Origin: Candidatus Thorarchaeota archaeon
GTDB lineage: Archaea > Asgardarchaeota > Thorarchaeia > Thorarchaeales > Thorarchaeaceae
Length of the DNA stretch: 64,000 bases
Direction of reading: 5' to 3'
NCBI GenBank assembly: GCA_029858305.1
Contig: JAOUFI010000001.1
Location: 179,031 to 243,030, forward strand
The position numbers and the translations under genes are program-made. Position 1 is the first letter of the stretch. Every line of letters begins with the position of its first letter. The notes beneath the pieces are model-generated. The model worked only from the letters and a program-made list of their open reading frames with translations, was not told the DNA's origin and ran no database searches. This document shows positions 5,633-47,482 of the stretch, piece by piece.

Positions 5633-6118
5633 TTGCACAGAAAGAGTAAGGATGTATATTTTGCAGAGATTGCCGATCTAGTATCATCTAGAAGTACGTG
5701 CCTTAGGGACCAAGTAGGAGCTGTTGTGGTGAAAGAGTCCCAGATTCTCAGCACTGGATATAACGGTGCTCCAAAAGGACTCCCACACTGTTCGGAGATT
5801 GGATGTTTAAGGGATCAGATGGGCGTAAAATCCGGAGAGCGTCATGAACTGTGTAGGGGACTACATGCAGAACAGAATGCCATTATTCAAGCGGCTTATC
5901 ATGGAACGAGTGTCAGGGGAGCAAAGATGTATTGTACGACAAGACCCTGCAGTATCTGCACAAAGATGATTATCAATGCAGGTATTGTCGAAATCATCTA
6001 TATTGATGGTTATGAGGATGCCTTGGCAACACAACTAGTCAAGGAGTCAGAACTCGTTGTTCGTCAGATTATGATTCCCAGAGTCTATGGCAGAAATGGT
6101 ACAAACATAGCTAAATAA
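5633..6118 (+). CDS. dCMP deaminase / ComEB family
   Basis: [30 protein letters not shown]. Confidence 0.9.
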
Positions 6119-6190
6119 CTCGCAAAAGCCATTTGTCGGGAAAGCTTAAAGAGTGACTAGGTCCCAGATTTAGTTCTAGGTGCACAGTAC

Positions 6191-7105
6191 ATGGTTGAAC
6201 TCCGAAATTTAATCAGCATACTTGACCTAGAGAAGAAACAGATTGATCATATTCTTGATAATGCGGCTAAAATGGAAGCTGTGGCAGTAAAAAGAAGCAA
6301 AGATTTAGATTCCAAGATTATGGCAACACTGTTTTTTGAACCATCAACACGAACTCGTCTTTCATTTGAAAGCGCAATGTTGCGACTTGGTGGAAGTGTG
6401 CTTGGATTTGCAGAGGCTGGAACCTCAAGTGCAGGTGGTAAAGGGGAAACACTTGCTGATACTATTCGTACTGTTGAAAGATACGCTGATGTAATCGTGA
6501 TGCGTCACCCATTAGATGGTTCTGCTAGGGTTGCAGCAGAGTTCTCCAACATTCCTGTTATCAATGCGGGAAGTGGTTCGGAGGAACACCCAACACAGGC
6601 GCTTTTAGACCTCTACTCTATAAAGAAACTCAAGGGAAAGCTTGATGGAATATCAATTTCCCTCTGTGGGGATTTGAAGTATGGCAGAACTGTTCATTCT
6701 CTTGGAATGGGACTTACACACTATGATGTCACCATCAAACTCGCAGCTCCGCAGTCGTTACGAATGAAACCTGCAGTGATTGAACAGATGAAAAAAGCAG
6801 GCGTGAGCGTGATTGAAGTAGAGAGTATTGAAGAAGCAGTCAAGGATACTGATGTCATCTATATGACCCGCATTCAGAAAGAACGATTTCCAGATCCTAG
6901 AGAATACGACAAGGTGAGTGGCAAGTTTAGTATCACTGCACAAGATGTCAAATTGATGCGAGATGATGCAATTATTTTGCATCCCCTCCCAAGAGTGGAC
7001 GAATTAAGCGCGGAAGTGGATAGTTTCCCACAAGCCAAATATTTCGACCAAGTCTACAACGGGGTCATTGTCCGCATGGCCATATTAAAGATGATTCTTG
7101 GCTAG
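6191..7105 (+). CDS. pyrB: Aspartate carbamoyltransferase catalytic subunit
   Basis: FFEPSTRTRLSF, HPTQAL, HPLPR. Confidence 0.97.
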   Translation: MVELRNLISILDLEKKQIDHILDNAAKMEAVAVKRSKDLDSKIMATLFFEPSTRTRLSFESAMLRLGGSVLGFAEAGTSSAGGKGETLADTIRTVERYADVIVMRHPLDGSARVAAEFSNIPVINAGSGSEEHPTQALLDLYSIKKLKGKLDGISISLCGDLKYGRTVHSLGMGLTHYDVTIKLAAPQSLRMKPAVIEQMKKAGVSVIEVESIEEAVKDTDVIYMTRIQKERFPDPREYDKVSGKFSITAQDVKLMRDDAIILHPLPRVDELSAEVDSFPQAKYFDQVYNGVIVRMAILKMILG

Positions 7106-8450: not shown

Positions 8451-10145
8451 TCAAGGACAGATTCCAATGATGACTCCTTGATATGGCGCAAGATGAAGTT
8501 TGGATTCGTTGAGTGTGTCTGTATCACTTATGGTCGAGAATAGTAGTTTAGGATTCTTCCCAATTTCACTTACGTAACTTGGTTTTTTAGAGAAATTCAA
8601 CCAAATTTGTACTACTTGTTCATCGTATATTCGTTGGTAAGAGAGGAAGTTACCAAATAGAGATGGAGGTAATAGATTCAGTGATCCTGAATGAAGAGCT
8701 GGGGTTTCTTTACGGAGTTTCAGGAGAGCCTTGTAACAGTTCAATAGGGAATCTGGATTAGACTCTTCTGAGTCTACATTGATTGTTTCATATCCAAGAC
8801 TTACTGGGAGCCAGGAGATTGATTTGTCAGAACAAAAACCTGCATTTGGTGATGAAGTCCATTGCATTGGAGTTCTGCAATCATCACGATTCAGAGAGAT
8901 TGAACCACTTCGTGTTAGTAGATTAACAATAAATTGAGGAAGCCAGCTATACTTCAGAGCTACAGGATCTTGTGCGTTTCTTAAAGGGATTCTATGATTT
9001 GACATTCCAACCTCTTCACCATAATAGATGAAGGGAACTCCTCTTGCTGTTAGTTGCAACATCACGTTGATTTTTGCCTTGTTCACGTCATTCCCTAATT
9101 TACTAATACGACGCATTTGATCGTGGTTAGAGAATACCCAGGTCGGAGAGTAGGGCTCTATAAAGTATTGTTCATATCTACTGATTAAGTTACGAAACGT
9201 GTTTGCATCAAATCTTGCATTGAGAGATTGGAAGAGGAATGTCAAATGAAGTCCATTGGTCTTGATATCATCTATTTTTTCGCCACAATACCTCTTGAGC
9301 GTTTCAAGTGATGCTGCTATTTCGCCAACCAAGAACCTTTCGGGATCTGAATATTCATCCATCACACTTCGAAGTTCTTTCGCAAAGGCAAAATTGTCAG
9401 GATGATTGACAGTGTATAACTTATTCTGGAAGAAACTTTTGTCATGCTCCTCGGAAGGAAAGAATGTTAAGGCAAATGGATTATTTTGAAGACTCTCATC
9501 TTCAAACACCGTATTGATGATATCTAAACGAAACCCATCGACGCCCTTATCCAACCAAAAGCGAAGAGTATCAAACATCTCTTGCTTCACTTCAGTATTG
9601 CGATAGTTTAGATCTGGTTGAAAGGGAAGAAACTGAGCCCAGTACCATTGGTCAGTCTGTTCATCATAGTGCCATCCTGAACCTCCTACAATCGATTTCC
9701 AGTTGTTTGGAGGTTTCTTACCTCTTGGCTTTTGGCCATCACGCCAAATGTACCAATTGCGCTTCGGATTATCCATACTCGACCGTGATTGCAGGAACCA
9801 AGGGTGTTGATTGCTAGTATGATTGAGAACCATATCAAAAACCACATACATGTCGCGATTGTGAATTTCCTGTATGAGCCTTTCACAGTCACTCATGGTT
9901 CCATACTCAGAAGCAATACTTCTGTAGTCACTGACATCATACCCATGATCTGCTTGAGGACTCGAAAAGAATGGTGAGAACCAGATTGTTCCAACTCCCA
10001 AATCCTGTAGATAGTCTAGTTTTGAAATGATTCCTGGAATATCTCCAATTCCGTTGTTTGTACTATCCTTGAAACTTCGTGGATAAATCTGATATACTGT
10101 GGTCGTCTTCCACCAAGGTAGGAATTTAATAGAAGATGTCACCAC
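8451..10145 (-). CDS. GH13 alpha-glucosidase / oligo-1,6-glucosidase
   Basis: YQIYPRSF, DMVLNHTS, GFRLDII, SNHD, RDDCRTPMQW. Confidence 0.93.
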   Translation of the reverse strand: MVTSSIKFLPWWKTTTVYQIYPRSFKDSTNNGIGDIPGIISKLDYLQDLGVGTIWFSPFFSSPQADHGYDVSDYRSIASEYGTMSDCERLIQEIHNRDMYVVFDMVLNHTSNQHPWFLQSRSSMDNPKRNWYIWRDGQKPRGKKPPNNWKSIVGGSGWHYDEQTDQWYWAQFLPFQPDLNYRNTEVKQEMFDTLRFWLDKGVDGFRLDIINTVFEDESLQNNPFALTFFPSEEHDKSFFQNKLYTVNHPDNFAFAKELRSVMDEYSDPERFLVGEIAASLETLKRYCGEKIDDIKTNGLHLTFLFQSLNARFDANTFRNLISRYEQYFIEPYSPTWVFSNHDQMRRISKLGNDVNKAKINVMLQLTARGVPFIYYGEEVGMSNHRIPLRNAQDPVALKYSWLPQFIVNLLTRSGSISLNRDDCRTPMQWTSSPNAGFCSDKSISWLPVSLGYETINVDSEESNPDSLLNCYKALLKLRKETPALHSGSLNLLPPSLFGNFLSYQRIYDEQVVQIWLNFSKKPSYVSEIGKNPKLLFSTISDTDTLNESKLHLAPYQGVIIGICP

Positions 10146-10270
10146 GGAAGATACCTCATATGATTTAAATTACAACTGCCTCATTTCTCTTCTTATTTCG
10201 TTATTGATTAGCAGCACACCCAAGCATGAATAAGGTCATAATGGATATACAATTGTTGAAGGTGAGTAAC

Positions 10271-10513
10271 ATGAGCTTGCTAGGACCAGATGATTTCGAC
10301 CTTGATGAAAAAGGAAGAAAAAAGAAACTTGCACATGATCTCTCTCCGGATGTAGCTAAAGAGATTGAAAAATGGCTTGAGAAAATCGATACTCCTCTCG
10401 CATTTGAGAAAATTGCGGAACTGATAGGACCGGAAGAGGCTAAGAGGCTGATTGGAGAGCGTACAAGACACGGGAGAAGAATAAAACCGGGAGACCCTTG
10501 GGCTCTAGAATGA
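10271..10513 (+). CDS. Hypothetical small charged protein
   Basis: GGTGAG SD before ATG 10271; protein-like composition, no recognised motif. Confidence 0.6.
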   Translation: MSLLGPDDFDLDEKGRKKKLAHDLSPDVAKEIEKWLEKIDTPLAFEKIAELIGPEEAKRLIGERTRHGRRIKPGDPWALE

Positions 10514-10646
10514 AAGGAGAATAATATGACACGTGATTGATGATACAAAGTATGGGAGAACACCTCGCACTTATATCAGGGTGACTAATATAGAGAGAGG
10601 AACAATTAGGCAGAGCCACACAAGTGTAGTAGATTCACCGATATGA

Positions 10647-12252: not shown

Positions 12253-12418
12253 TTATGATACATCCATGTATCCTGCGCACCCGCTGCTTAATAATTTGGT
12301 AGGGTCTGAAACACAAGGATTTTCAAAAATTCTAGAGGATTATATTGATATTGTTGATTCAAGTCTGATTTTGTTGCGGCGGTATTGAAGAATCGACTCA
12401 ATGCCAAGGTGGTTGAAA

Positions 12419-13372
12419 ATGCATCATAGTGTGAATCAAGGATCGCTTGAGATTGTCAAAGAGATTCTTGATAGGAAAAACGAACTCATCTGTAGTGTGA
12501 AGGAGATGAAATCAGGAACAACGCTCATCGATGCAGGTATCCAGTGCAAAGGGAGCGTGGAACTTGGTAGACTTATCGGAGAAACTTGCCTTGGCGGATT
12601 GGGGGTGGTCAGAATAACGAGGATGATTATTGGTGATTTGGACTTACCTGCAGTCATAGTCAGTGTGGAACGTCCAAAGATTGGAACGCTTGCGTCGCAA
12701 TATGCTGGCTGGAGCATAAGAATAGGTGGAAATTATGCTCTGGGTTCAGGTCCAGCTAGAGCCTTGGCGAGAGTGGAAAAGAGCCTTTACGAAGAAATAG
12801 GCTATCAAGATACATCAAAAAAGAGCGTGATTATACTCGAAACTAGAGAGATGCCTACTGAAGAGGTGGTAGAGCACATTGCAAAAAAATGCGGAATTAC
12901 TTCATCCAATCTGTATTGTATCGTAGTACCAACCGCGAGCATAGCTGGTTCAGTTCAAATATCCTCTAGAATAGTTGGAGTAGGACTTCACAAGCTTCGA
13001 CATATTGGATTTGACCTAGAAAGAATAAGAAGAGGTCATGGGGTGGCTCCAATTGCACCGGTGGAAAAGCACGATAATAAGGCGATGGGAGTTACCAATG
13101 ATTGCATACGCTACGGCGGGAGAACCTTTTATCATATAAGCACAGATAGTGATGATTTGCAAGATATTGTAGAGAGAGTTCCAGCATCCACTTCAACCCA
13201 TTACGAACAATCCTTCAATGACTTGTTCAAGAATGCCAGCTTTGATTTCTATAAATTAGACCCACTAATCTTCGGTCCTGCCGAGGTTACATTTAATCAC
13301 ATCGAGAGTGGAAAAATATACCAGGCCGGAGGAGTGAATCCCGACATTCTTCGACACTCTTTTGGCATATGA
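12419..13372 (+). CDS. mch: Methenyltetrahydromethanopterin cyclohydrolase homologue
   Basis: ASQYAGW, GSGPARAL, PTASIAGSVQIS, TND, FDFYKLDP-IFGPAEV. Confidence 0.88.
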   Translation: MHHSVNQGSLEIVKEILDRKNELICSVKEMKSGTTLIDAGIQCKGSVELGRLIGETCLGGLGVVRITRMIIGDLDLPAVIVSVERPKIGTLASQYAGWSIRIGGNYALGSGPARALARVEKSLYEEIGYQDTSKKSVIILETREMPTEEVVEHIAKKCGITSSNLYCIVVPTASIAGSVQISSRIVGVGLHKLRHIGFDLERIRRGHGVAPIAPVEKHDNKAMGVTNDCIRYGGRTFYHISTDSDDLQDIVERVPASTSTHYEQSFNDLFKNASFDFYKLDPLIFGPAEVTFNHIESGKIYQAGGVNPDILRHSFGI

Positions 13373-22515: not shown

Positions 22516-23526
22516 CTACTGCTTCGATGATGTGCTGATGTAGCTCACCTGCATTGGACCTTCTTTTTGACCCATCTTTGGACGCATGGCGAGCCGGATT
22601 CGTACTGGCCGTTTTATTGTACCAGGAACTGATCCATGAAGCATTATGTAATCACCACGAATGACACCGTAGTTCACAAATCCGCTAGAGGGCGTGATTT
22701 CTTCTCCACGTTCACCCATCTTGAGAATTCTGTTATTGTAACTTGTCCGAGTGTGGAAACCCGTCTGACCAGGTCTAGGAACGGTGTATCTGATACTAGA
22801 TGGAGTCCAAGGACCAATACAACCAATTCCACGTTTTGTCTTTCTGGATTTGTGTTGGAGAATTCTAACTCCCCAGCGGCGGACCGGACCCTGAAATCCA
22901 TGACCCTTGGTCACTGCAATCGTATCAACGAGGATTCCCTCATCTAGGATGTCTGCTACACGGAGATCGGTGCCAAGAATACTCTTGGCGTACTCAAAGG
23001 CTGTTCTGATATCTCCGCCTGTACCTATTTTGTATTCCACTACATCAGGCTTCTTTTTCGATAGTCCCGCAAGTCGTGGCTGAGTATGGATTAACATCCG
23101 AATCTCGGCAAACGAGTCGAGCTTTGACTCAAACTCTGCCATCTTGGTATCATGGTCATAGTCTTTTGGCAGTGGCAATGTCTTTCGAAGGTCTTCTGAC
23201 AAATTACTCGCAAGAACCTCTATTACAAGCCTGAGACCATAGGGAGTAGCCTCATAACCGCGAATTGAGAATGGCCTAATCGGAGGTGTATCAATCACTG
23301 TGACCGGCATGACAGTTTCCTGTCCGTTGAATGGACTGTCAGGGTTGTTTATTGTAACAACCGCATGGGTCATACCAGCTTTATATCCGATGAAACCAAG
23401 TAGTTTTGCAGCCGAGTCGTTATACTCAGGCCAGTTCTTGATACGGGGCACGAATTTAGAAGCCTTGCCTCGTGGCAAGTATGCTAGACTGCCACGCCTT
23501 GGTGCTTCTTTCTTTCTGTGTGCCAA
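22516..23526 (-). CDS. rpl3: 50S ribosomal protein uL3
   Basis: PRRGSLAYLPR, GYKAGMTH, TKGHGFQGPV; TTG start at 23526. Confidence 0.96.
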   Translation of the reverse strand: MAHRKKEAPRRGSLAYLPRGKASKFVPRIKNWPEYNDSAAKLLGFIGYKAGMTHAVVTINNPDSPFNGQETVMPVTVIDTPPIRPFSIRGYEATPYGLRLVIEVLASNLSEDLRKTLPLPKDYDHDTKMAEFESKLDSFAEIRMLIHTQPRLAGLSKKKPDVVEYKIGTGGDIRTAFEYAKSILGTDLRVADILDEGILVDTIAVTKGHGFQGPVRRWGVRILQHKSRKTKRGIGCIGPWTPSSIRYTVPRPGQTGFHTRTSYNNRILKMGERGEEITPSSGFVNYGVIRGDYIMLHGSVPGTIKRPVRIRLAMRPKMGQKEGPMQVSYISTSSKQ

Positions 23527-23663
23527 TTTTAACACCACAATAATATCCGTATCGAATGGCCGGTAAACTAGGCTATTCGTACTACAACGGACCCGCCAAG
23601 GGGGGATTGTTTTTAAAACTTGCCTACTGACCAAGTACCAATTCGGGGTACTGAAGAAATTAG

Positions 23664-26030
23664 CTAGAATCGATTCTGCTCAGTTCTAGCAAGGATTTCG
23701 TTTTGCAGATCCTTACCTATGTTAACAAAATAGTCCGAGTATCCAGCAACTCGAACAATAAGGTTCTGATAATTTTCTGGATGAGTCTGAGCATCTCGCA
23801 AGGTTTCAGCTTTTACAACATTGAACTGAATATGGTGACCACCTAATTTGAAGTACGTAAGGACTAAATCCGCAAGCTTTCGGCGCCCCTCTTTGTCTGC
23901 GAGAACATCAGGCATAAACTTCTGATTTAGAAGGGTACCTCCGGTTTTAGAATGGTCAATCTTGGCGACAGATTTGATTACAGCAGTAGGCCCACTCTTA
24001 TCAGCTCCATGACTAGGAGATATCCCGTCAGATAAAGGACCACCAGCTTTTCTACCATCAGGAGTTGCACCTGTTACCTGTCCAAAGTAGATGTGTACAG
24101 TGGTTGGAAGAAGATTAACGCGATATTCTCCACCCTTTGTATTTGGACGGCCATCGATTGAGTCAAAATATACCTGAAAGACTGATTGAGCTATCGCATC
24201 TGCATAGTCATCATCATTTCCATACTTTGGCGTCTTGTTCAACAACGTCATTCTCAAAGCATCATTTTCTTCAAAATCAGTCCTCATCGCTTCAAGCAAC
24301 TCTGCCATGGTGTACTTCTTTTTATCGAAGACATGATATTTGATTGCAGAGAGCGAATCTGTGATAGTCCCCATGCCAACGCCCTGAATGTAGGTTGAAT
24401 TGTATCGAGGACCACCATCATGGTAGTTTCTACCCTTCATAATGCAATCATCAAAAAGAAGGGACATGAAAGGCGCAGGCATATATTCTGCGTAGAGTCG
24501 TTCGATTATATTATTGCCTTTGATTTTGACATCAATAAAGTATCGTAGTTGCTTCTTATAGGCTGTGAATAGTTCTTCAAATGACGTGAACTCTGTTACA
24601 TTTCCTGTTTCTATTCCGACTCTCTTCCCTGTTCGAGGATCGACACCGTTGTTGAGGGTTATTTCTAGTATTTTTGGCCAGTTACAGTATCCTGTCAGGA
24701 TACAGCTCTCTTTTCCAAAAGCGCTGATTGTGACACAACCACTTGGTCCTCCAACCCTTGCGTCCTCGATTGACTTTCCCGCTCGAAGAAACTCTTTGAT
24801 TATCACATCTGTGTTGAACAGAGAGGGTTGACCGAACCCTTCCTTCACCACATCAATTGCGCTCATCAAGAAACTATCAGGATTCTCCGTACTCATCTGA
24901 ATACATATACTCGGTTGTATCAACCGCATCTCATTGCAGACCTCAAGAATGAGATAAGAAAGATCGTTGACAGCATCCGTACCGTCAGATTTCAGGCCCC
25001 CAGTATTAATCAGAGAGAAGTCTTGGTATGTACCACTCTGCTGTTCAGTGATTTCGACTTTTGGTGGAGCTGGCTGATTATTGAACTTGATCCAGAAACA
25101 CTGCAAAAGCTCTTTTGAGAACTCCTTTGTAAGGGTTCCATTACTGATATCTCTCTGATAGAAGGGGTAGAGGTTCAGGTCCAAGCGACCAGGATTGAAA
25201 CTATCCCAGACATTGAGTTCTATAATTACGCCAAGGTGAATAAACCAGTATGCCTGTAAAGCCTCCCAGAAATTACGTGGGGGCTTGGCTGGAACGTGAG
25301 CGCATATCTCTGCAATTTGATCTAGTTCTTTCTTCCGGACAGGATTGGTCTCCGACTCGGCAAGTTCCCTCGCTTTGTCAGCATGACGCTGTGCAAAGGA
25401 AATCATCGCTTCTGCTGCAATCTGCATTGCCTTGAGCTCTTGCTCCTTTGCGTATGCCTTGTCATCATCATAATAATCTAATTTGGAGAGAGCTTGTTGG
25501 ATGTCATCAATGAAATCGAGAAGTCCACGACGATAGATTTTGTCATCAAGAATTGCGTGTCCGGGAGCTCTTTGTTCCATAAACTCAGTAAATACGCCAG
25601 CCTCAAAGGCGGCCATCCATTGATCTGACATTACACTGAAAACACGTTCACGTATTGTCCTACCAGTCCAATAGGGAATAATCTCATCACGATAGGTGCT
25701 GAGGGCTTCATCGCTGACCAAGAAAGGTGTGCGTTCTCGTGAATTAGCAATCTTGAGGTCATTAAGAGAATGACAACAGAGTTCAGGGTATGTTGGTGTG
25801 GCCTGTGGTGCGGACCCACGTTCACCAACGATTAACTCTCCATCATTGATGATGATTGTCTTATTTTCCAGAATATACTTGAATGCCGTTGCCCTAGCTA
25901 CTGGATTTGATACTGTATCTGCCCCGCCATTCTGATAGAAATCAGTCAGGAGTTCAGCGCGTTCAGTGCAGATATAGGGTTTAGTACGAACACTCTGCTC
26001 TCGTAATTTCTGAACGCGTTCTGTCAACAT
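23664..26030 (-). CDS. Glycyl radical enzyme, HypD (4-hydroxyproline dehydratase)-like clade with variant active site
   Basis: RVAGYS glycyl loop; FTEFMEQRAPGH, WDSFNPGRLD, TYQDF, LPTTVH match HypD; Cys loop SGCVT. Confidence 0.9.
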   Translation of the reverse strand: MLTERVQKLREQSVRTKPYICTERAELLTDFYQNGGADTVSNPVARATAFKYILENKTIIINDGELIVGERGSAPQATPTYPELCCHSLNDLKIANSRERTPFLVSDEALSTYRDEIIPYWTGRTIRERVFSVMSDQWMAAFEAGVFTEFMEQRAPGHAILDDKIYRRGLLDFIDDIQQALSKLDYYDDDKAYAKEQELKAMQIAAEAMISFAQRHADKARELAESETNPVRKKELDQIAEICAHVPAKPPRNFWEALQAYWFIHLGVIIELNVWDSFNPGRLDLNLYPFYQRDISNGTLTKEFSKELLQCFWIKFNNQPAPPKVEITEQQSGTYQDFSLINTGGLKSDGTDAVNDLSYLILEVCNEMRLIQPSICIQMSTENPDSFLMSAIDVVKEGFGQPSLFNTDVIIKEFLRAGKSIEDARVGGPSGCVTISAFGKESCILTGYCNWPKILEITLNNGVDPRTGKRVGIETGNVTEFTSFEELFTAYKKQLRYFIDVKIKGNNIIERLYAEYMPAPFMSLLFDDCIMKGRNYHDGGPRYNSTYIQGVGMGTITDSLSAIKYHVFDKKKYTMAELLEAMRTDFEENDALRMTLLNKTPKYGNDDDYADAIAQSVFQVYFDSIDGRPNTKGGEYRVNLLPTTVHIYFGQVTGATPDGRKAGGPLSDGISPSHGADKSGPTAVIKSVAKIDHSKTGGTLLNQKFMPDVLADKEGRRKLADLVLTYFKLGGHHIQFNVVKAETLRDAQTHPENYQNLIVRVAGYSDYFVNIGKDLQNEILARTEQNRF

Positions 26031-26117
26031 AGTGTGAACCTCGCTGAATCTCCACAAACGTATCGAGTTTGATAGATACCTCATCATGTGTCTAAAAAGG
26101 TCACGTATAAGGAATGG

Positions 26118-26975
26118 TTAATCGTAGAACCCCTGTCTTGCTATCACCTTTCCTACTGAATTGTTCAAAAGACCAAGACTGACTATGAGAGCCTCTTCAA
26201 GCCGTACTGTTTCGGATCCTTGATCATCTATTGTGTTTATCCAAAAATCAATTTGACGTTTGATATCATCTCTCTGTACATCGCAAAGCTCCAAGATGCC
26301 CCTATTGGGGTCCCCAAACACAGCCAAGACTGAGCCTGTGCTGGACACTGTTGATATCAAATCTTTCTCCAACTGAAAGAAAGGGGGCGCTTTTCTAGAG
26401 AAGCCAATTCGGGTCATATTTCTAGACCGCTCCAGTAGCTCTAGTAGGGTTCCGGTTCGGCTTGCTTCAAATCCCCAATAGACTGGAGCTTCTAGTCGGT
26501 CTATGATGGATAAAGAGAGAGTCGGAGATACAGCTTCAACTTTGAATAAGGTAGGGTCACGTTCACTCAGCAACGTTGGAAAATCGATGAGATTATCGAA
26601 TCCTAAATCAATCTTGCCAGGACGAACTTGAATTCCCCACCTCACTGTACCAGCAGTTAACTCTGATATTTTTGATAGAAGGGGGTGACTACGGGTTCGT
26701 AAGGGTGGAAGAAGTCCTGCATATTGAAGGGAGGGCGACTGGGGAAAGATTCTCCTTCTAAGATATTGGGGTGTGTCCATAAACCGTAGAATCTTCACGA
26801 GAAGATCAGCATCCCTTTTTTGCGTAGCACGGAGTTTTTCTGTGCTATAGACAAACACCTCTTCTACTCGGAATATTGCAAGTGTTCGAGCGATTTGACC
26901 GACCTTTACCGTCTTCTGTCGTAGATCGGTGCAGTCAATCAATGAGGTGTCAGGAAGTGCTACCTTGAGGGTCAT
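26118..26975 (-). CDS. SPOUT-family RNA methyltransferase (COG2106-like)
   Basis: GQIARTLAIFRV, TPQYLRR, GLLPPLRT-H, QGSETVRLEEAL. Confidence 0.88.
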   Translation of the reverse strand: MTLKVALPDTSLIDCTDLRQKTVKVGQIARTLAIFRVEEVFVYSTEKLRATQKRDADLLVKILRFMDTPQYLRRRIFPQSPSLQYAGLLPPLRTRSHPLLSKISELTAGTVRWGIQVRPGKIDLGFDNLIDFPTLLSERDPTLFKVEAVSPTLSLSIIDRLEAPVYWGFEASRTGTLLELLERSRNMTRIGFSRKAPPFFQLEKDLISTVSSTGSVLAVFGDPNRGILELCDVQRDDIKRQIDFWINTIDDQGSETVRLEEALIVSLGLLNNSVGKVIARQGFYD

Positions 26976-38398: not shown

Positions 38399-40498
38399 TC
38401 ATTTTATCTTCAAACCTGTGTGATGCGCTCGAAAGATGAATGACTTGGCCCACAAATCAATGGTTTTCTCGATTGGAGATCCAACTCCATGACCCGCTTG
38501 GCTCTCGGTATAAAGAATTAGAGGTCCATCATCTAGCATCTCATCCGTTGTACTCTGAAGCTTTGCAGTCATCTTGAATGCATGCATTGGATCAACTCTG
38601 CTATCGCCCAAGGCTGTGTACAGCAGAGTCGGAGGATATTTTACATCTCTGACATGATGATAGGGACTATAGGGATATATCCATTCAAACTCCTCTTTGA
38701 CTTCTGGGTCCCCGTACTCTGGAGACCAAGTCTTTGCCACCTGAAAACGGGTATATCTAATCATATCGAGCAAAGGTACATGACATGATACAGCTCCAAA
38801 GAGTTCAGGTCTTTGAACCAACGCAGCTCCTACCAAAAGACCTCCGTTGCTTCCACCATAGATTGCGATAGTGTCACGACTGCCAATTCTATTTTCGATG
38901 AGCCATTCGGCGGCTCCAATGAAGTCATCAAAGACGTTTTGTTTGTTCTCACGGTTTCCTGCCCGGTGCCACTTTTGTCCGTACTCCCCACCACCCCTGA
39001 GATGTGCGATTGCTACTATACCCCCTTGTTCAATCCAAGTAACATAGTTTTGAGAGAATACTGGAGTGTTTGATAAACCAAATCCACCATATCCAGTCAG
39101 TGTGACTGGAGTCTTCACTGAAATCTTAGTACTTTTGTTCGATAGGATAAACATTGAAACTTTCGTGCCATCCTTAGACTTGTACCATACCTGTTTTGAT
39201 TGGAAAAGTGTAGGATCTAAATCAAGATTTGGCTTGTAGAAAAGGCTAGACTCACCAGATTTGTAAGAGTAGTACGAAGCTGGATAGAAGTAGCTACCAA
39301 GGTTATAGTAGAATCTGTCTGCTTCAGGAGAGGTAGAAAGTTGATAGAGTGTTACATGGGAGTTGAAACTGACATTGTCTATAAGTTTGCCAGACTCTAA
39401 ATCATGAACTTTCAAAGAACTAGAGGCGTTCTTTTCCTCTATTACAGCAAGTTGGTTATTATGAATAACGAACCTACCGTGGTCAGCAGTAAAAATAACG
39501 CCTTCGGTTTCTTTTACTACTGTTTTACTTTCAGGTATCTTTCTATCTTCAGAGAATCTCGATAAATCGTATCTTAGAATCTGACCGTTTGGAGCACCGT
39601 GTTGCGTTAGTACATATAGATGATTACCATTCACCTCAGATATACTTGAAACCGAATCACTCGTGATTACTGGAACGAATGTCAATGAGCTGGGGTCATC
39701 TGGATTCACGTGAGCAATATGGATATCTGAACTGATGAATCGATAACTACAGATTGTCAATAGTGTGCAATCCTCGTTGATTGAGAGAAGTGGATGTTCA
39801 GTCTTTAATCTCCCTGAGCCAAACACCTTCACGTCATTCTTGTAATCATCGCCAAGCTTGTGATAATAGACGTGGTGATAGTAGTTCTCATCCTCTGGTG
39901 AAACAGTTCCAGGTAATGGGTATCTACTGTAGTAGAAACCTATGTTTTTTACCCAGGCGATTTCACACCATTTAGTTTGCGGTATCTTCTCAGTGAGATT
40001 TTTTTTCTTCTCAACATCTATCACATGTAGAACGCTCATCTCTGTGCCCCCTTCTGATGTTCCGTATGCCACTAAGCTTCCATCGCTGCTTGCACTAAAC
40101 CAATCAATCGAGATGAGCGCATCTTTGGACTCTTTAAGGGGATCAAAGAGTACTGTCTTCTTTCCTTTCTCCCCATCTTGATAGCAAAGGGACGGTTGGT
40201 TTTTTCCGGCTTCCCTGAAGAAATAGAAGAATCTGGGGCCATTCTTCGTTGTTACAACCTTTAAGGTGGCGTCTTGAATGTAATCGTATAGAAACAGGTC
40301 ATGCATTCGTTTCTTGATAATCGCTCCACCAGAATATCCATCAAGGATTTTGGTGGAAAACTTGTTCTGTTCTTCCACCCACTCTAGCACCTCACTTGAA
40401 GACGCATCTTCAAGCCAACGATACGGATCTTCAATCTTGATACCATGTATCTCTTCTACAATTTTCTCTTTCCGGGATACTGGATATTTTTGTCCCAT
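38399..40498 (-). CDS. Prolyl oligopeptidase (S9A)
   Basis: DPYRWLED, GYGGF, RGGGEYG, GGSNGG, DSRVDP, GHG. Confidence 0.95.
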   Translation of the reverse strand: MGQKYPVSRKEKIVEEIHGIKIEDPYRWLEDASSSEVLEWVEEQNKFSTKILDGYSGGAIIKKRMHDLFLYDYIQDATLKVVTTKNGPRFFYFFREAGKNQPSLCYQDGEKGKKTVLFDPLKESKDALISIDWFSASSDGSLVAYGTSEGGTEMSVLHVIDVEKKKNLTEKIPQTKWCEIAWVKNIGFYYSRYPLPGTVSPEDENYYHHVYYHKLGDDYKNDVKVFGSGRLKTEHPLLSINEDCTLLTICSYRFISSDIHIAHVNPDDPSSLTFVPVITSDSVSSISEVNGNHLYVLTQHGAPNGQILRYDLSRFSEDRKIPESKTVVKETEGVIFTADHGRFVIHNNQLAVIEEKNASSSLKVHDLESGKLIDNVSFNSHVTLYQLSTSPEADRFYYNLGSYFYPASYYSYKSGESSLFYKPNLDLDPTLFQSKQVWYKSKDGTKVSMFILSNKSTKISVKTPVTLTGYGGFGLSNTPVFSQNYVTWIEQGGIVAIAHLRGGGEYGQKWHRAGNRENKQNVFDDFIGAAEWLIENRIGSRDTIAIYGGSNGGLLVGAALVQRPELFGAVSCHVPLLDMIRYTRFQVAKTWSPEYGDPEVKEEFEWIYPYSPYHHVRDVKYPPTLLYTALGDSRVDPMHAFKMTAKLQSTTDEMLDDGPLILYTESQAGHGVGSPIEKTIDLWAKSFIFRAHHTGLKIK

Positions 40499-45253: not shown

Positions 45254-45613
45254 ATGGGAATAGTATCAAAAATACTTGGTCTCGCCTTAGCTGGAATGGG
45301 TTTTGTAGTCCTCTTCTATGGAATGAGTACCACTGATGCCCTGTCGTTCCTTTGGTCATTCATGGGTCTCATCATCATGTCTCTTGGATTCGCCTTAATC
45401 ACTGGAGGGAAACAAGCTGAGAAGAAACCTCCACCTCCAACAGTCACAGAGATTCGCTGTAGTAGCTGTGATTTCAAAGAGATACGTGATTTCAAGAAAG
45501 GCGATTATGTCTTGATGCCTGTTGAGGAAACGTGTCCAAAGTGTCAGAGCTCAATGACTATTGAGGGCGTCTACATTGTAAGGGAAGAACCAGAAGTTAA
45601 ATACAATGTCTAG
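45254..45613 (+). CDS. Membrane protein with C-terminal zinc ribbon
   Basis: Two TM helices, CSSC...RDFKKGDYV...CPKC. Confidence 0.8.
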   Translation: MGIVSKILGLALAGMGFVVLFYGMSTTDALSFLWSFMGLIIMSLGFALITGGKQAEKKPPPPTVTEIRCSSCDFKEIRDFKKGDYVLMPVEETCPKCQSSMTIEGVYIVREEPEVKYNV

Positions 45614-46509
45614 GGTTTCTTCGTCAGAATCACAGGACCCTCTTCAGAGATGAAGATTGTGTGTTCGGCCTGACTAACTGGCCGGCCTTTCTTCTCTATT
45701 TGAAGAGGTAGCCCTCGAATGGCTTTTGCTCGGATGAGTGCTCTAATCTCATCGACAATATCTACTTCCTTATCAGAGGACCCGATCCATCTCGATGCAA
45801 ACGGCAGAGGTCCATATTTTTCTCGAAGGTACACTCTTAGCTTCTCTGTTGTGCCTGAAATTGGTGTATCCAAACCAGTATTAGCAAAAATGTAGACATA
45901 CTCACTATCAACTACAGTGCCAATCCCACTAGTCGCAAATGGTTCAATAGCATAATACTCTCCAACTTCGACCTTGGATGCTCCGCGAACTTTAGTATTT
46001 GGAACTTGTTTTCCTCCGTGAAGTTGATATCGCCTAATAGAATGGCCTGTAAGGTTAGAAATTGGTCGAAGACCATATGCTTTAACGACAGTCTCAATCT
46101 TCGCTCCTACATCTCCTAAAGATGCGCCTGGCTTCATCATAACAAGGGCTTCTTCGAGGGCATCTTCTGTAGCCGCAATGAATCCTTCAAGTGTTCCATC
46201 AATATCAACAGTCAGTGCAGTGTCAGTGATGTAGCCATCTATATGCACACCAATATCTAACTTGACGAGCCCAAATTCTGGTATCTCACTACGGTCACCT
46301 TTGGGGGATGTAGAATGTGCTACGATATGGTTGACTGAAACATTACACGGAAATGCAGGAGTGCCACCATATTCCCGTATCTTCTTTTCCGCAGTTGTAC
46401 AGATTTTTATTATTCTCGCCTTTGGTTCAATCATCTCACTGATTTCTTTGAGAACCCGTGCAGCAATCTCTCCGGAACGGACTGCGGATGGATGAGGATT
46501 GGTGACCAT
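45610..46509 (-). CDS. map: Type II methionine aminopeptidase, copy 2
   Basis: AFPCNVS, KLDIG, DTA, GH...LHGG, AIEPF, QAEHT. Confidence 0.93.
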   Translation of the reverse strand: MVTNPHPSAVRSGEIAARVLKEISEMIEPKARIIKICTTAEKKIREYGGTPAFPCNVSVNHIVAHSTSPKGDRSEIPEFGLVKLDIGVHIDGYITDTALTVDIDGTLEGFIAATEDALEEALVMMKPGASLGDVGAKIETVVKAYGLRPISNLTGHSIRRYQLHGGKQVPNTKVRGASKVEVGEYYAIEPFATSGIGTVVDSEYVYIFANTGLDTPISGTTEKLRVYLREKYGPLPFASRWIGSSDKEVDIVDEIRALIRAKAIRGLPLQIEKKGRPVSQAEHTIFISEEGPVILTKKP

Positions 46510-46564
46510 GATACCACCGTACATAGACGAAATCAACAACCACTCTTAAGCGGTTCCATGCCCG

Positions 46565-47482
46565 CTATAGAATTTCATCGTTCCTTCGTGTCGATACTAT
46601 TGCACTCTCTTCTCCAACAAATATACTATGTTCGAACTGTGAAACCATACCATCCTTGCCCTCAAGCAGGACCGGATATCCATGAATGGCACCAGCTCGT
46701 TGCAGTGTTTTGAGAGCAATATCTACATCTATCTCTCCAACTTTACCAAACAACCAGCGAGAAGCCCATGGTAGAGATTTGAACAACTGGCGAGATGTAT
46801 TACGAACTCTGAGTGCGGAGTGGTCGAGTTTTTTCCTATTCTTAAAATCATTCGAGAAGATATACGCAGTCTGCCCGCTCTTGATTGTCCCATTCCCGTT
46901 TGTGGCAAATGGCTCAATTGCATAAGTTTCACCCGGATTCATTGTGGGAGATATCTTTTGCCCAATATTTGGTACATTCTTCCCCGCATGAAGTATCCAT
47001 TGTTTAAGCTGATGCCCCGACAACTGGTGAACTGGCTTGAGTCCATGTTTCTTTATCGTGCGTTCGATTGCTTCGCCCACCTCTCCCACACGAACGCCTG
47101 GACGGACTGTTTCAATAGCAGATTCCAGGGCATTCTTCGCCGCAGCAATATATGTTTCATGGGATCCATCTAAGTCAATAGTGAGTGCGGTATCAGAAAT
47201 ATAGCCATTAACATGAGCTCCAATGTCCACTTTTACAAGACCCGTATCAGGAAATACCTTTGAATCAGCATGGGGACTTGTGTAATGTGCAGCCTGATTA
47301 TTGATAGATACATTACAGGGGAAAGCAATACCTGTGGCGCCAAACTCAAGTATCTTCTCTTCAGCAAGTCTACATATCTTCAGGATTTTTACTCCAGGTC
47401 GGACTTCGTTCTCCACAAGACTGAGAACCCGTCCTGCGATTTTTCCAGCCTTCAAGAAATCGGGATGGGGTGTTGCAGTCAC
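46565..47482 (-). CDS. map: Type II methionine aminopeptidase, copy 1
   Basis: AFPCNVS, AAHY, KVDIG, DTA, GH...LHAG, AIEPF, QFEHS. Confidence 0.93.
   Translation of the reverse strand: MTATPHPDFLKAGKIAGRVLSLVENEVRPGVKILKICRLAEEKILEFGATGIAFPCNVSINNQAAHYTSPHADSKVFPDTGLVKVDIGAHVNGYISDTALTIDLDGSHETYIAAAKNALESAIETVRPGVRVGEVGEAIERTIKKHGLKPVHQLSGHQLKQWILHAGKNVPNIGQKISPTMNPGETYAIEPFATNGNGTIKSGQTAYIFSNDFKNRKKLDHSALRVRNTSRQLFKSLPWASRWLFGKVGEIDVDIALKTLQRAGAIHGYPVLLEGKDGMVSQFEHSIFVGEESAIVSTRRNDEIL

Follow-up and report, generated by a model that had tools for sequence, protein, structure and literature searches.

The window analysed here is a 64,000-nucleotide stretch of a Candidatus Thorarchaeota genome (GCA_029858305.1, contig JAOUFI010000001.1, positions 179,031 to 243,030), and the gene in question occupies positions 23664–26030 of it on the minus strand. 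The gene encodes a glycyl radical enzyme (GRE) that resembles HypD, the trans-4-hydroxy-L-proline dehydratase, but carries threonine in place of the CXE motif's glutamate. Its open reading frame runs uninterrupted from an ATG at 26028–26030 to a TAG at 23664–23666 and specifies 788 amino acids, as the initial annotation of this DNA had it, and the five HypD-type segments named there (EQRAPGH, WDSFNPGRLD, SGTYQDF, LPTT and RVAGY) are all found in the translation. Translation from another in-frame ATG, at 26087, would lengthen the protein by 19 residues to 807; close homologues are mostly 787–788 residues long. The G+C fraction of the gene is 0.436, versus 0.434 for the window. The features of the gene are as follows, where residue numbers are those of the query protein and those in brackets are of Clostridioides difficile HypD.

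23664–26030, minus strand: GRE open reading frame, 788 amino acids plus stop, HypD-like Thr-type subfamily (open reading frame, Pfam, NCBIfam, alignment to 6vxc)
24081–26024, minus strand: PFL-like domain, residues 3–650 (PF02901; coordinates through the codon map)
23724–24032, minus strand: glycine radical domain, residues 667–769, with RVAGY; Gly763 codon GGA at 23742–23744 (PF01228)
24735–24737, minus strand: Cys432 codon TGT (Cys434), thiyl radical site (alignment to 6vxc)
24729–24731, minus strand: Thr434 codon ACA, opposite Glu436 of the CXE motif (alignment to 6vxc)
24702–24704, minus strand: Cys443 codon TGT, opposite Tyr445, not Tyr450 (alignment to 6vxc)
24687–24689, minus strand: Tyr448 codon TAC (Tyr450), carboxylate-binding, conserved (alignment to 6vxc)
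25554–25559, minus strand: His158 (His160, conserved) and Ala159 (canonical Thr161, subfamily-defining) (sequence comparison)
25203–25208, minus strand: Trp275 and Asp276 (Trp277 and Asp278), substrate contact and proposed acid/base, conserved (sequence comparison)
25017–25040, minus strand: Gln331 (canonical Glu333, subfamily-defining), Ser332 (Ser334), Asp337 (Asp339) and Phe338 (Phe340) (sequence comparison)
24744–24746, minus strand: Pro429 codon (canonical Ala/Thr431), subfamily-defining (sequence comparison)

Family assignment of the GRE

The protein has the overall organisation of the GRE superfamily. Pfam finds the PFL-like barrel domain (786.8 bits) and, C-terminal to it, the glycine radical domain (134.5 bits), Gly763 lies in RVAGY, an instance of the RVxG[FWY] motif, Cys432 is on the Cys loop, and a radical S-adenosylmethionine (radical-SAM) activating enzyme is encoded elsewhere in the genome, on contig C98. 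Among NCBIfam models the query scores 1251.4 bits with the HypD equivalog NF043068, above its cut-off of 1100, and the runners-up are the PFL2-3 subfamily (698.7 bits) and then the next named enzyme (593 bits). Among solved structures C. difficile HypD (6vxc) comes closest, aligning over residues 4–786 with 1029.7 bits. The residues that bind hydroxyproline in HypD are present, as are the acid/base residues His160, Asp278 and Asp339 (His158, Asp276 and Asp337 in the query). We nevertheless file the query as a member of a HypD-like subfamily and not as an isofunctional HypD, because Glu436, whose replacement in the E436Q variant inactivates C. difficile HypD, is here Thr434.

Threonine at the CXE glutamate site

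The Cys loop of the query reads GGPSGCVTISAFGKESCILTG, with GCVT where HypD has GCVE. The alignment with 6vxc is free of gaps in this region and puts Thr434 opposite Glu436, which bears out the replacement of CXE by CVT first noticed in the sequence; the Thr codon, ACA, does lie two changes from GAA. When the query is taken together with its best 120 matches in a collection of 5.8 billion proteins (73–94% identity), the loop is CVT in 118 of the 121 proteins and CVE in three, a retention of Thr beyond chance, and the Tyr445 position holds Cys in 118 and Val in three. Among Asgard sequences all four Thr codons occur at the site (ACA 20, ACG 9, ACC 9 and ACT 4). The second substitution had been misplaced, as a loss of Tyr450 from GKEAY. 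The chain number in 6vxc equals the native number plus 20 (Cys454 is Cys434 and Glu456 is Glu436); by this count GKEAY ends in Tyr445 and LTGY in Tyr450. Tyr450 is kept, as Tyr448, and it is Tyr445 that Cys443 replaces. A term search of the main text of Backman 2020 found no mention of Tyr445.

The surroundings of the substrate are otherwise those of HypD. In the C. difficile enzyme Ser334, Tyr450 and Thr645 hold the substrate carboxylate, Phe152, Trp277 and Phe340 pack on the ring, and Arg156 and Lys326 balance charge (PMC7077986). Excerpts of the same paper describe His160, Asp278, Asp339 and Glu436 as essential, with the E436Q, D278N, H160Q and D339N variants inactive, and propose that the Glu positions the leaving hydroxyl and does not act as a base, Asp278 being the acid/base. 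Every residue reported to bind or act on hydroxyproline in HypD is identical in the query save Glu436 (Phe152, Arg156, His160, Trp277, Asp278, Lys326, Ser334, Asp339, Phe340, Tyr450 and Thr645). Across the Asgard Thr-type sequences Arg156, His160, Asp278, Ser334, Asp339, Phe340, Cys434, Thr645 and Gly765 are identical in 45 of 45, and the same set without Gly765 but with Phe152, Trp277, Lys326 and Tyr450 shows no variation among the 19 tabulated members from bacteria and other archaea.

A conserved and widespread Thr-type subfamily

Comparison of 45 Thr-background sequences with 24 canonical ones yielded 20 discriminating positions, and the Thr-type subfamily as we define it here is marked by Ala159, Gln331, Pro429 and a residue other than Tyr at 443, with Thr or Glu at 434; the query has Cys443 and Thr434 along with the other three. 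In a sample of 187 members, which pools the Asgard loci with 19 from elsewhere and with the 120 neighbours of one Phycisphaerales protein, Ala159 (canonical Thr161) is found in 187, Gln331 (canonical Glu333) in 186 and Pro429 (canonical Ala/Thr431) in 186. Position 443 (canonical Tyr445) is Cys in 177, Val in eight and Thr in two, and at position 434 there are 172 Thr, 15 Glu and no other residue. The subfamily-defining changes flank His160, Ser334 and the Cys loop, and C. difficile HypD is canonical at each. We infer that the Glu436 carboxylate would lose its hydrogen-bond partners through them.

In a FastTree phylogeny the 45 Asgard Thr-background sequences are monophyletic with an SH-like support of 0.75, and the sister clade of canonical Asgard HypDs has a support of 0.993. 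All Thr-type sequences remain one clade when the 19 non-Asgard members are added. Canonical bacterial HypDs entered that tree as P0123 and P0127 only, too few to fix where the clade stands with respect to them. Of 14 pairs compared, five are saturated; in the nine whose dS is below 1, Nei-Gojobori dN/dS is 0.050–0.128. Frames are intact at 44 of the 46 loci taken from Asgard genomes that have the Thr-type background. Purifying selection on the subfamily is strong.

In 400 genomes of the phylum, HypD-level genes turned up in many Asgard families, and 70 of these loci were taken for comparison, 67 of them with usable frames. They divide by family, with the Thr-type loop in f1 (the family of the window genome), f14 and f32, and the canonical GCVE..Y loop in f4, f8, f11, f13, f21 and f22. 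Our first conclusion, that CVT formed a purely Thorarchaeial clade, was overturned by a scan of GTDB, one genome per species, with the degenerate pattern G-G-x-x-G-C-V-T-x3-F-G-K-E, which brought in bacteria and other archaea. At least 119 stretches matched, and all 80 loci inspected among the matches listed translate to GGPSGCVT[IV][SG].FGKE..LTGY, one with a stop elsewhere in its 644-base stretch. The loop signature GGPSGCVT[IV]S.FGKESC spans at least 10 phyla in those listed matches, taxon names here being the labels of the database records. Among the matches listed, the archaeal ones are Thorarchaeota, a metagenome-assembled genome (MAG) labelled Hermodarchaeota, Theionarchaea, Bathyarchaeota/Bathyarchaeia and Thermoproteota; the Planctomycetota are Phycisphaerae, Sedimentisphaerales, Pirellulales and Planctomycetaceae; and the other bacteria are Bipolaricaulota, Thermotogae, Aminicenantes, Zixibacteria, Armatimonadota, Ignavibacteria, Synergistetes and a MAG labelled Nealsonbacteria. 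A library of representatives at 50% identity could not show the subfamily, because the HypD-level family collapses there into a few representatives and fragments.

Each of 25 GTDB-match genomes searched holds a single HypD-level gene (E ≤ 1e-150 to the query), near full-length and 58–72% identical in 23 and partial in two, and in none of the 25 does a canonical HypD accompany the Thr form. The initial annotation had proposed asking whether CVT with Cys marks a conserved clade; it does, and the subfamily so marked is large, monophyletic and strongly held by purifying selection. The contrary possibility raised there, a CVT loop private to this genome and under relaxed selection, is at odds with its presence in many phyla and with the dN/dS values given above.

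Alternation between Thr and Glu

On a tree of 211 sequences built with position 434 left out, Fitch parsimony over the 187-member ingroup reconstructs Thr as the ancestral state and four changes to Glu, in clades of six, three, five and one sequences. A switch between Thr and Glu takes two nucleotide changes each time, and the intermediates Ala, Lys, Asn and Asp are found in none of the 187 members, nor are Ser and Gln. The nearest relatives of the query are themselves Glu orthologues: L018 and L019, 86% and 85% identical to it, are nested with supports of 0.93–0.99, keep all tabulated discriminating subfamily residues save position 526, and share the methyltransferase–GRE–L3 gene order with the query locus. 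In the Planctomycete Glu clade two members have the canonical Thr at loop residue 435, one of them also Ala at 429 (AETSC and PETSC). The 120 neighbours of the Phycisphaerales protein divide into 111 with Thr and nine with Glu, and JGI metagenome contigs hold 39 stretches with the Glu form on the Pro429 background, mostly in a Cys443 context and four with Tyr at the Tyr445 position (GKENY).

Gene context and activating enzymes

Two neighbours of the GRE serve as synteny markers in family f1, with no functional link claimed for either.

26118–26975, minus strand: upstream neighbour, putative RNA methyltransferase (PF02598, 148.5 bits)
22516–23634, minus strand: downstream neighbour, ribosomal protein L3, first gene of L3–L4–L23–L2 (PF00297)

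In f1 loci, the window included, the GRE sits between the RNA methyltransferase, with archease beyond, and the L3–L4–L23–L2 cluster. The window as a whole is archaeal housekeeping DNA, with FtsZ, L3–L4–L2, Nop56/58-like, fibrillarin-like, ELP3, aIF2-gamma, DnaG and pelota genes. At L058, at L054 and in the window, the f1 loci examined, no activase adjoins the GRE. The query genome, 88.9% complete, encodes three GREs and one activase (TIGR02494, 326.1 bits, contig C98), and searches of it with two other activases found no second one. An activase elsewhere in the genome is likewise present in G336, G362, G340, G370 and G377; no activase homologue was found in the f1 genomes G368 (77% complete, a single contig) and G365 (74% complete), both of which have a Thr-type GRE. 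Canonical Asgard HypDs are adjoined by an activase of about 270 amino acids in six of the eight loci examined, and non-Asgard Thr-type loci by a radical-SAM activase in 16 of 19. Contigs from metatranscriptome runs X19 and X20 cover the L3 gene and 26043–26262 only, with none over the GRE body; they share few query words and allow no inference on expression either way.

The neighbours of the 19 non-Asgard loci, scanned over the nearest 81 of 136 open reading frames, have a peptide-related character, with M24 Xaa-Pro peptidases at three loci, M2/M3-like oligopeptidases at four, OPT, POT or SSF transporters at three and a Pro_racemase-family gene at one. The Planctomycete loci L222, L223, L224 and L226 run on into an M2/M3-like oligopeptidase, joined in L222–L224 by an OPT or SSF transporter; an M24 Xaa-Pro aminopeptidase is found in L223 and L224 as well, and a POT transporter lies upstream in L222. 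Gene order at the Aminicenantes locus is GntR, activase, GRE, M24 peptidase, Pro_racemase family, the last gene scoring 394 bits in the hydroxyproline epimerase/dehydratase superfamily, and in a Thermotogae locus a cupin-domain gene and then hydantoinase/oxoprolinase A and B lie downstream of the GRE. A prolyl-oligopeptidase-family protein (Pfam) is present in the window at 38402–40498. The suggestion made from the sequence that it fits peptide and proline scavenging agrees with the bacterial operons; the window copy itself stands 12 kb away among housekeeping genes.

Within the Asgard archaea, the region upstream of the Thr-type GRE in f14 loci encodes an MFS transporter and a conserved protein of 312–314 amino acids. 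The latter gene directly precedes the GRE (L047:2222-3157, L048:2636-3574, L051:5982-6920 and L052:4808-5749), matches nothing in Pfam or NCBIfam, is not similar to the L049 dehydrogenase described next, and may encode a membrane protein, judging by hydrophobic-looking stretches. In L049 (f32) the gene directly downstream of the Thr-type GRE (5867-6874, minus strand) is a 2,4-diaminopentanoate dehydrogenase homologue (329 bits, cut-off 400), an HypD-activase-like gene lies upstream (386 bits with the HypD-activase model, its best match, below the cut-off of 425), and an MFS transporter is nearby. We set this Ord-like dehydrogenase aside: it neighbours the GRE in L049 only, and no homologue was found in the query genome.

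Relation to characterised enzymes

The query matches C. difficile HypD (6VXC/6VXE; NF043068) over its full length, without gaps in the Cys loop and with both the Gly and the Cys radical sites. It differs from it by Glu436Thr, Thr161Ala, Val162Ile, Glu333Gln, Thr338Gln, Thr431Pro, Thr437Ile, Gly438Ser and Tyr445Cys, and also in having an archaeal host, no adjoining activase and no proC found in the genome. Canonical Asgard HypDs, the sister group of the Thr-type clade in the tree, are 59–63% identical to the query and, unlike it, keep GCVE and Tyr445. Huang et al. 2018, as far as excerpted, place archaeal HypDs in a clade of their own near those of thermophilic bacteria.

The N-methyl-cis-4-hydroxyproline dehydratases HpyG and HpzG (8ID1 and 8IOF), GRE eliminases that act on a hydroxyproline ring, are far more distant in sequence and score 483.3 and 460.6 bits with the query, and a GRE that opens the ring of a hydroxyproline isomer scores 423.6 bits. 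All of them retain CXE: excerpts of a 2026 review (PMC13450708) describe the Glu as bonded to the leaving hydroxyl in HpyG and HpzG, and as hydrogen-bonded to the substrate C4 hydroxyl in the ring-opening HplG; the ring-opening enzyme abstracts hydrogen from C4. The B12-independent glycerol dehydratase (1R8W), the second-best solved relative at 583.6 bits, has the same fold and the same radical relay. Unlike the query it lacks the hydroxyproline-binding residues and has GCVE, with the Glu described in partial sources as the catalytic base on the diol. According to the excerpts of the same review, characterised GRE eliminases and isomerases retain CXE, and no archaeal PFL-like GRE has a characterised function.

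The Thr variant is not mentioned in the excerpts of the HypD, GRE and similarity-network literature consulted (PMC6219649, PMC7077986 and PMC13450708). Full-text searches of one literature library for Asgard archaea with hydroxyproline dehydratase found no paper, and those for Thorarchaeota with glycyl radical returned papers that, by their titles, concern other subjects (hydrocarbon degradation, Hermodarchaeota and Thermoplasmatota). A separate observation, from the library of representatives, concerns several uncharacterised GREs 35–40% identical to the query (P0147, P0220, P0155 and others), which also lack the CXE Glu, with loops such as GCVTM, GCVTP and GCTS; Cys loops without CXE are thus no rarity in GRE families that await study.

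A proposed 4-hydroxyproline dehydratase and its alternatives

We assign a probability of about 0.5 to the reading that the query is an active GRE of a widespread, uncharacterised HypD subfamily, most likely still dehydrating a 4-hydroxyproline as HypD does. It is an intact, selected and widely shared enzyme with the HypD pocket and acid/base residues, mostly with its own activase and, in several phyla, with neighbours for the breakdown of proline-rich peptides, and 4-hydroxyproline dehydration is therefore its most likely reaction. From the observed membership, conservation, distribution, selection and gene context we infer the substrate, the product and the role of Thr434 as follows. By analogy with HypD, the likeliest substrate would be free trans-4-hydroxy-L-proline from peptide breakdown and the product pyrroline-5-carboxylate. 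The sole GRE activase, on contig C98, would install the radical on Gly763 as in C. difficile HypD, and the radical would move to Cys432, which would take a hydrogen from ring C5. Asp276 (Asp278) would deprotonate the amine and protonate the leaving 4-hydroxyl, to which Thr434 could hydrogen-bond, and the hydrogen atom would go back to C4. With the second shell around the Cys loop rebuilt by Thr161Ala, Glu333Gln, Ala431Pro and Tyr445Cys, the residue touching the leaving hydroxyl would no longer have to be a carboxylate; Thr is the usual occupant of this site, with Glu as an occasional alternative.

Several points weigh against this proposal. The E436Q variant of C. difficile HypD is inactive, according to the excerpts of PMC7077986, and the characterised eliminases and isomerases covered in the excerpts of PMC13450708 all keep CXE. 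A site restricted to Thr or Glu in 187 members looks like two discrete functional states and not like mere tolerance. The negative charges of Glu333 and Glu436 are lost jointly, which might mean that the substrate or the leaving group is charged differently. The activase on contig C98 lies directly 3' of another GRE, one with a CLE loop, and not beside the Thr-type GRE, and the literature searched holds no activity data for any member of the subfamily. Finally, proC was found neither in the query genome nor in 85 other f1 and 19 f14 genomes. We rejected proC as a discriminator, as canonical proC (TIGR00112) is equally missing from families with canonical HypD (0 of 31 f8, 0 of 12 f13 and 0 of 3 f4 genomes), though present in 87 of 135 f22 and 15 of 22 f11 genomes. 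The usual pyrroline-5-carboxylate reductase is thus missing from many Asgard lineages that have a HypD-type gene. Pro_racemase gives weak partial matches of 23–30 bits in the Thorarchaeial genomes G000 (the query genome), G362, G340 and G319 and no match in G363 and G342, and comparison of Thr- and Glu-bearing genomes was uninformative in this respect.

The best surviving alternative, which we regard as possible but less probable, keeps the fold and the radical initiation at C5 and changes the preferred substrate, to a hydroxyproline stereoisomer or a 4-substituted proline, so that Thr and Glu act as a specificity switch. A 4-substituted leaving group would not need a carboxylate, or would be repelled by one. 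The strict two-state occupancy of position 434 (Thr 172, Glu 15) despite two nucleotide changes per switch, at least four independent switches from Thr to Glu, and the canonical residues at 435 and 429 in members of one Glu clade all point this way. So do the loss of Glu333, Glu436 and the Thr161 and Tyr445 hydroxyls, all beside catalytic or binding residues, and the Pro_racemase-family gene of the Aminicenantes operon. We retain this alternative because E436Q is dead, the site is strictly two-state and two carboxylates are lost together. Against it, the residues that contact the carboxylate, the amine and the ring are all unchanged, and peptidase and peptide-transporter neighbours point to ordinary peptide-derived amino acids. 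The Thr form also never accompanies a canonical HypD in the 25 genomes, though a division of labour would predict coexistence, and Thr and Glu orthologues occupy identical gene order within one genus.

A more specific version, which we advance tentatively and think rather doubtful, is that the alternation is a natural two-state switch in which the Thr form handles a hydroxyproline species that canonical HypD does not. Candidates would be another stereoisomer or a 4-hydroxyproline O-substituted in glycoproteins of plants or algae, with a leaving group needing no carboxylate, and lineages would flip back to Glu on return to free trans-4-hydroxy-L-proline. Were this true, one residue would tune the leaving-group chemistry of a radical eliminase, and a large share of the genes annotated as HypD in anoxic sediments would be misassigned.

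The initial annotation went further and proposed new radical chemistry or a different substrate. The substrate half of that proposal keeps some probability; the chemistry half is weakened by the retained contact and acid/base residues, by the 25 genomes that have no canonical HypD besides the Thr form, by Glu orthologues in the same gene order and by the proposed positioning role of the HypD Glu. Another reaction class on a proline-like ring, such as ring opening or isomerisation, seems improbable to us. The missing CXE Glu, kept in characterised eliminases and isomerases as excerpted above, speaks for it, as does the L049 dehydrogenase homologue next to the GRE, 2-amino-4-ketopentanoate being, in the source excerpts, a product of both that enzyme and HplG. 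Yet HplG itself keeps the CXE Glu, hydrogen-bonded to the C4 hydroxyl, the dehydrogenase adjoins the GRE at one locus only with no homologue found in the query genome, and the HypD acid/base set of Asp278, His160 and Asp339 is intact. Least likely of all is an inactive or decaying Thorarchaeial copy kept by chance beside the ribosomal operon without its own activase: the f1 loci examined without an adjoining activase, the failure to find a homologue in G368 and G365 and the inactivity of E436Q would agree with it, but dN/dS of 0.05–0.13, intact frames at 44 of 46 Asgard Thr-background loci, Gly763 and Cys432 kept throughout the Asgard Thr-type sequences, activases elsewhere in G000, G336, G362, G340, G370 and G377 and dedicated activases in bacterial members all speak against it.

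A large natural subfamily of sediment microbes, mostly without a Glu thought indispensable, offers a natural test of the role of that Glu, and the long-assumed requirement can be tested directly, with the Thr and Glu orthologues that nature provides, at about 85% identity, as ready controls. If the query proves to be an ordinary HypD, the Glu would be a positioning and not a catalytic residue, and the mechanism would be refined. As the NCBI hidden Markov model names these genes trans-4-hydroxy-L-proline dehydratase, inferences on anaerobic hydroxyproline and peptide turnover in sediments, and on Asgard metabolism, rest on a variant whose function is putative.

Other genes in the genome and its relatives

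The second GRE of the query genome, on contig C24 (L015:3736-6108, minus strand), has 791 amino acids and scores 736.5 bits with PFL2-3, above its cut-off and below all named-enzyme cut-offs. An aminotransferase gene lies upstream and KDG/KDGal kinase and KHG/KDPG aldolase genes downstream, a setting that hints at a role in sugar-acid or amino-sugar metabolism for this uncharacterised radical enzyme. The third, on contig C98 (L016:7111-9549, plus strand), has 813 amino acids and a GCLE loop, and its N-terminal 180 or so residues fall outside the best-matched stretches of the NCBIfam GRE models; the activase (9552-10526, plus strand) follows, and then a protein with a weak PNPOx-like match and no NCBIfam model. 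Elsewhere in the window, tandem type II methionyl aminopeptidase genes lie at 45613–46539 and 46568–47482 on the minus strand (283.7 and 294.6 bits), and a methenyl-tetrahydromethanopterin cyclohydrolase gene (mch, 383.9 bits), here in an Asgard genome, lies at 12401–13369 on the plus strand. In a relative, G004, a 1549-amino-acid ribonucleotide reductase frame (L063:11314-15960, minus strand) with intein-splicing, LAGLIDADG and HNH domains is found two genes past the activase that adjoins a canonical Asgard HypD.

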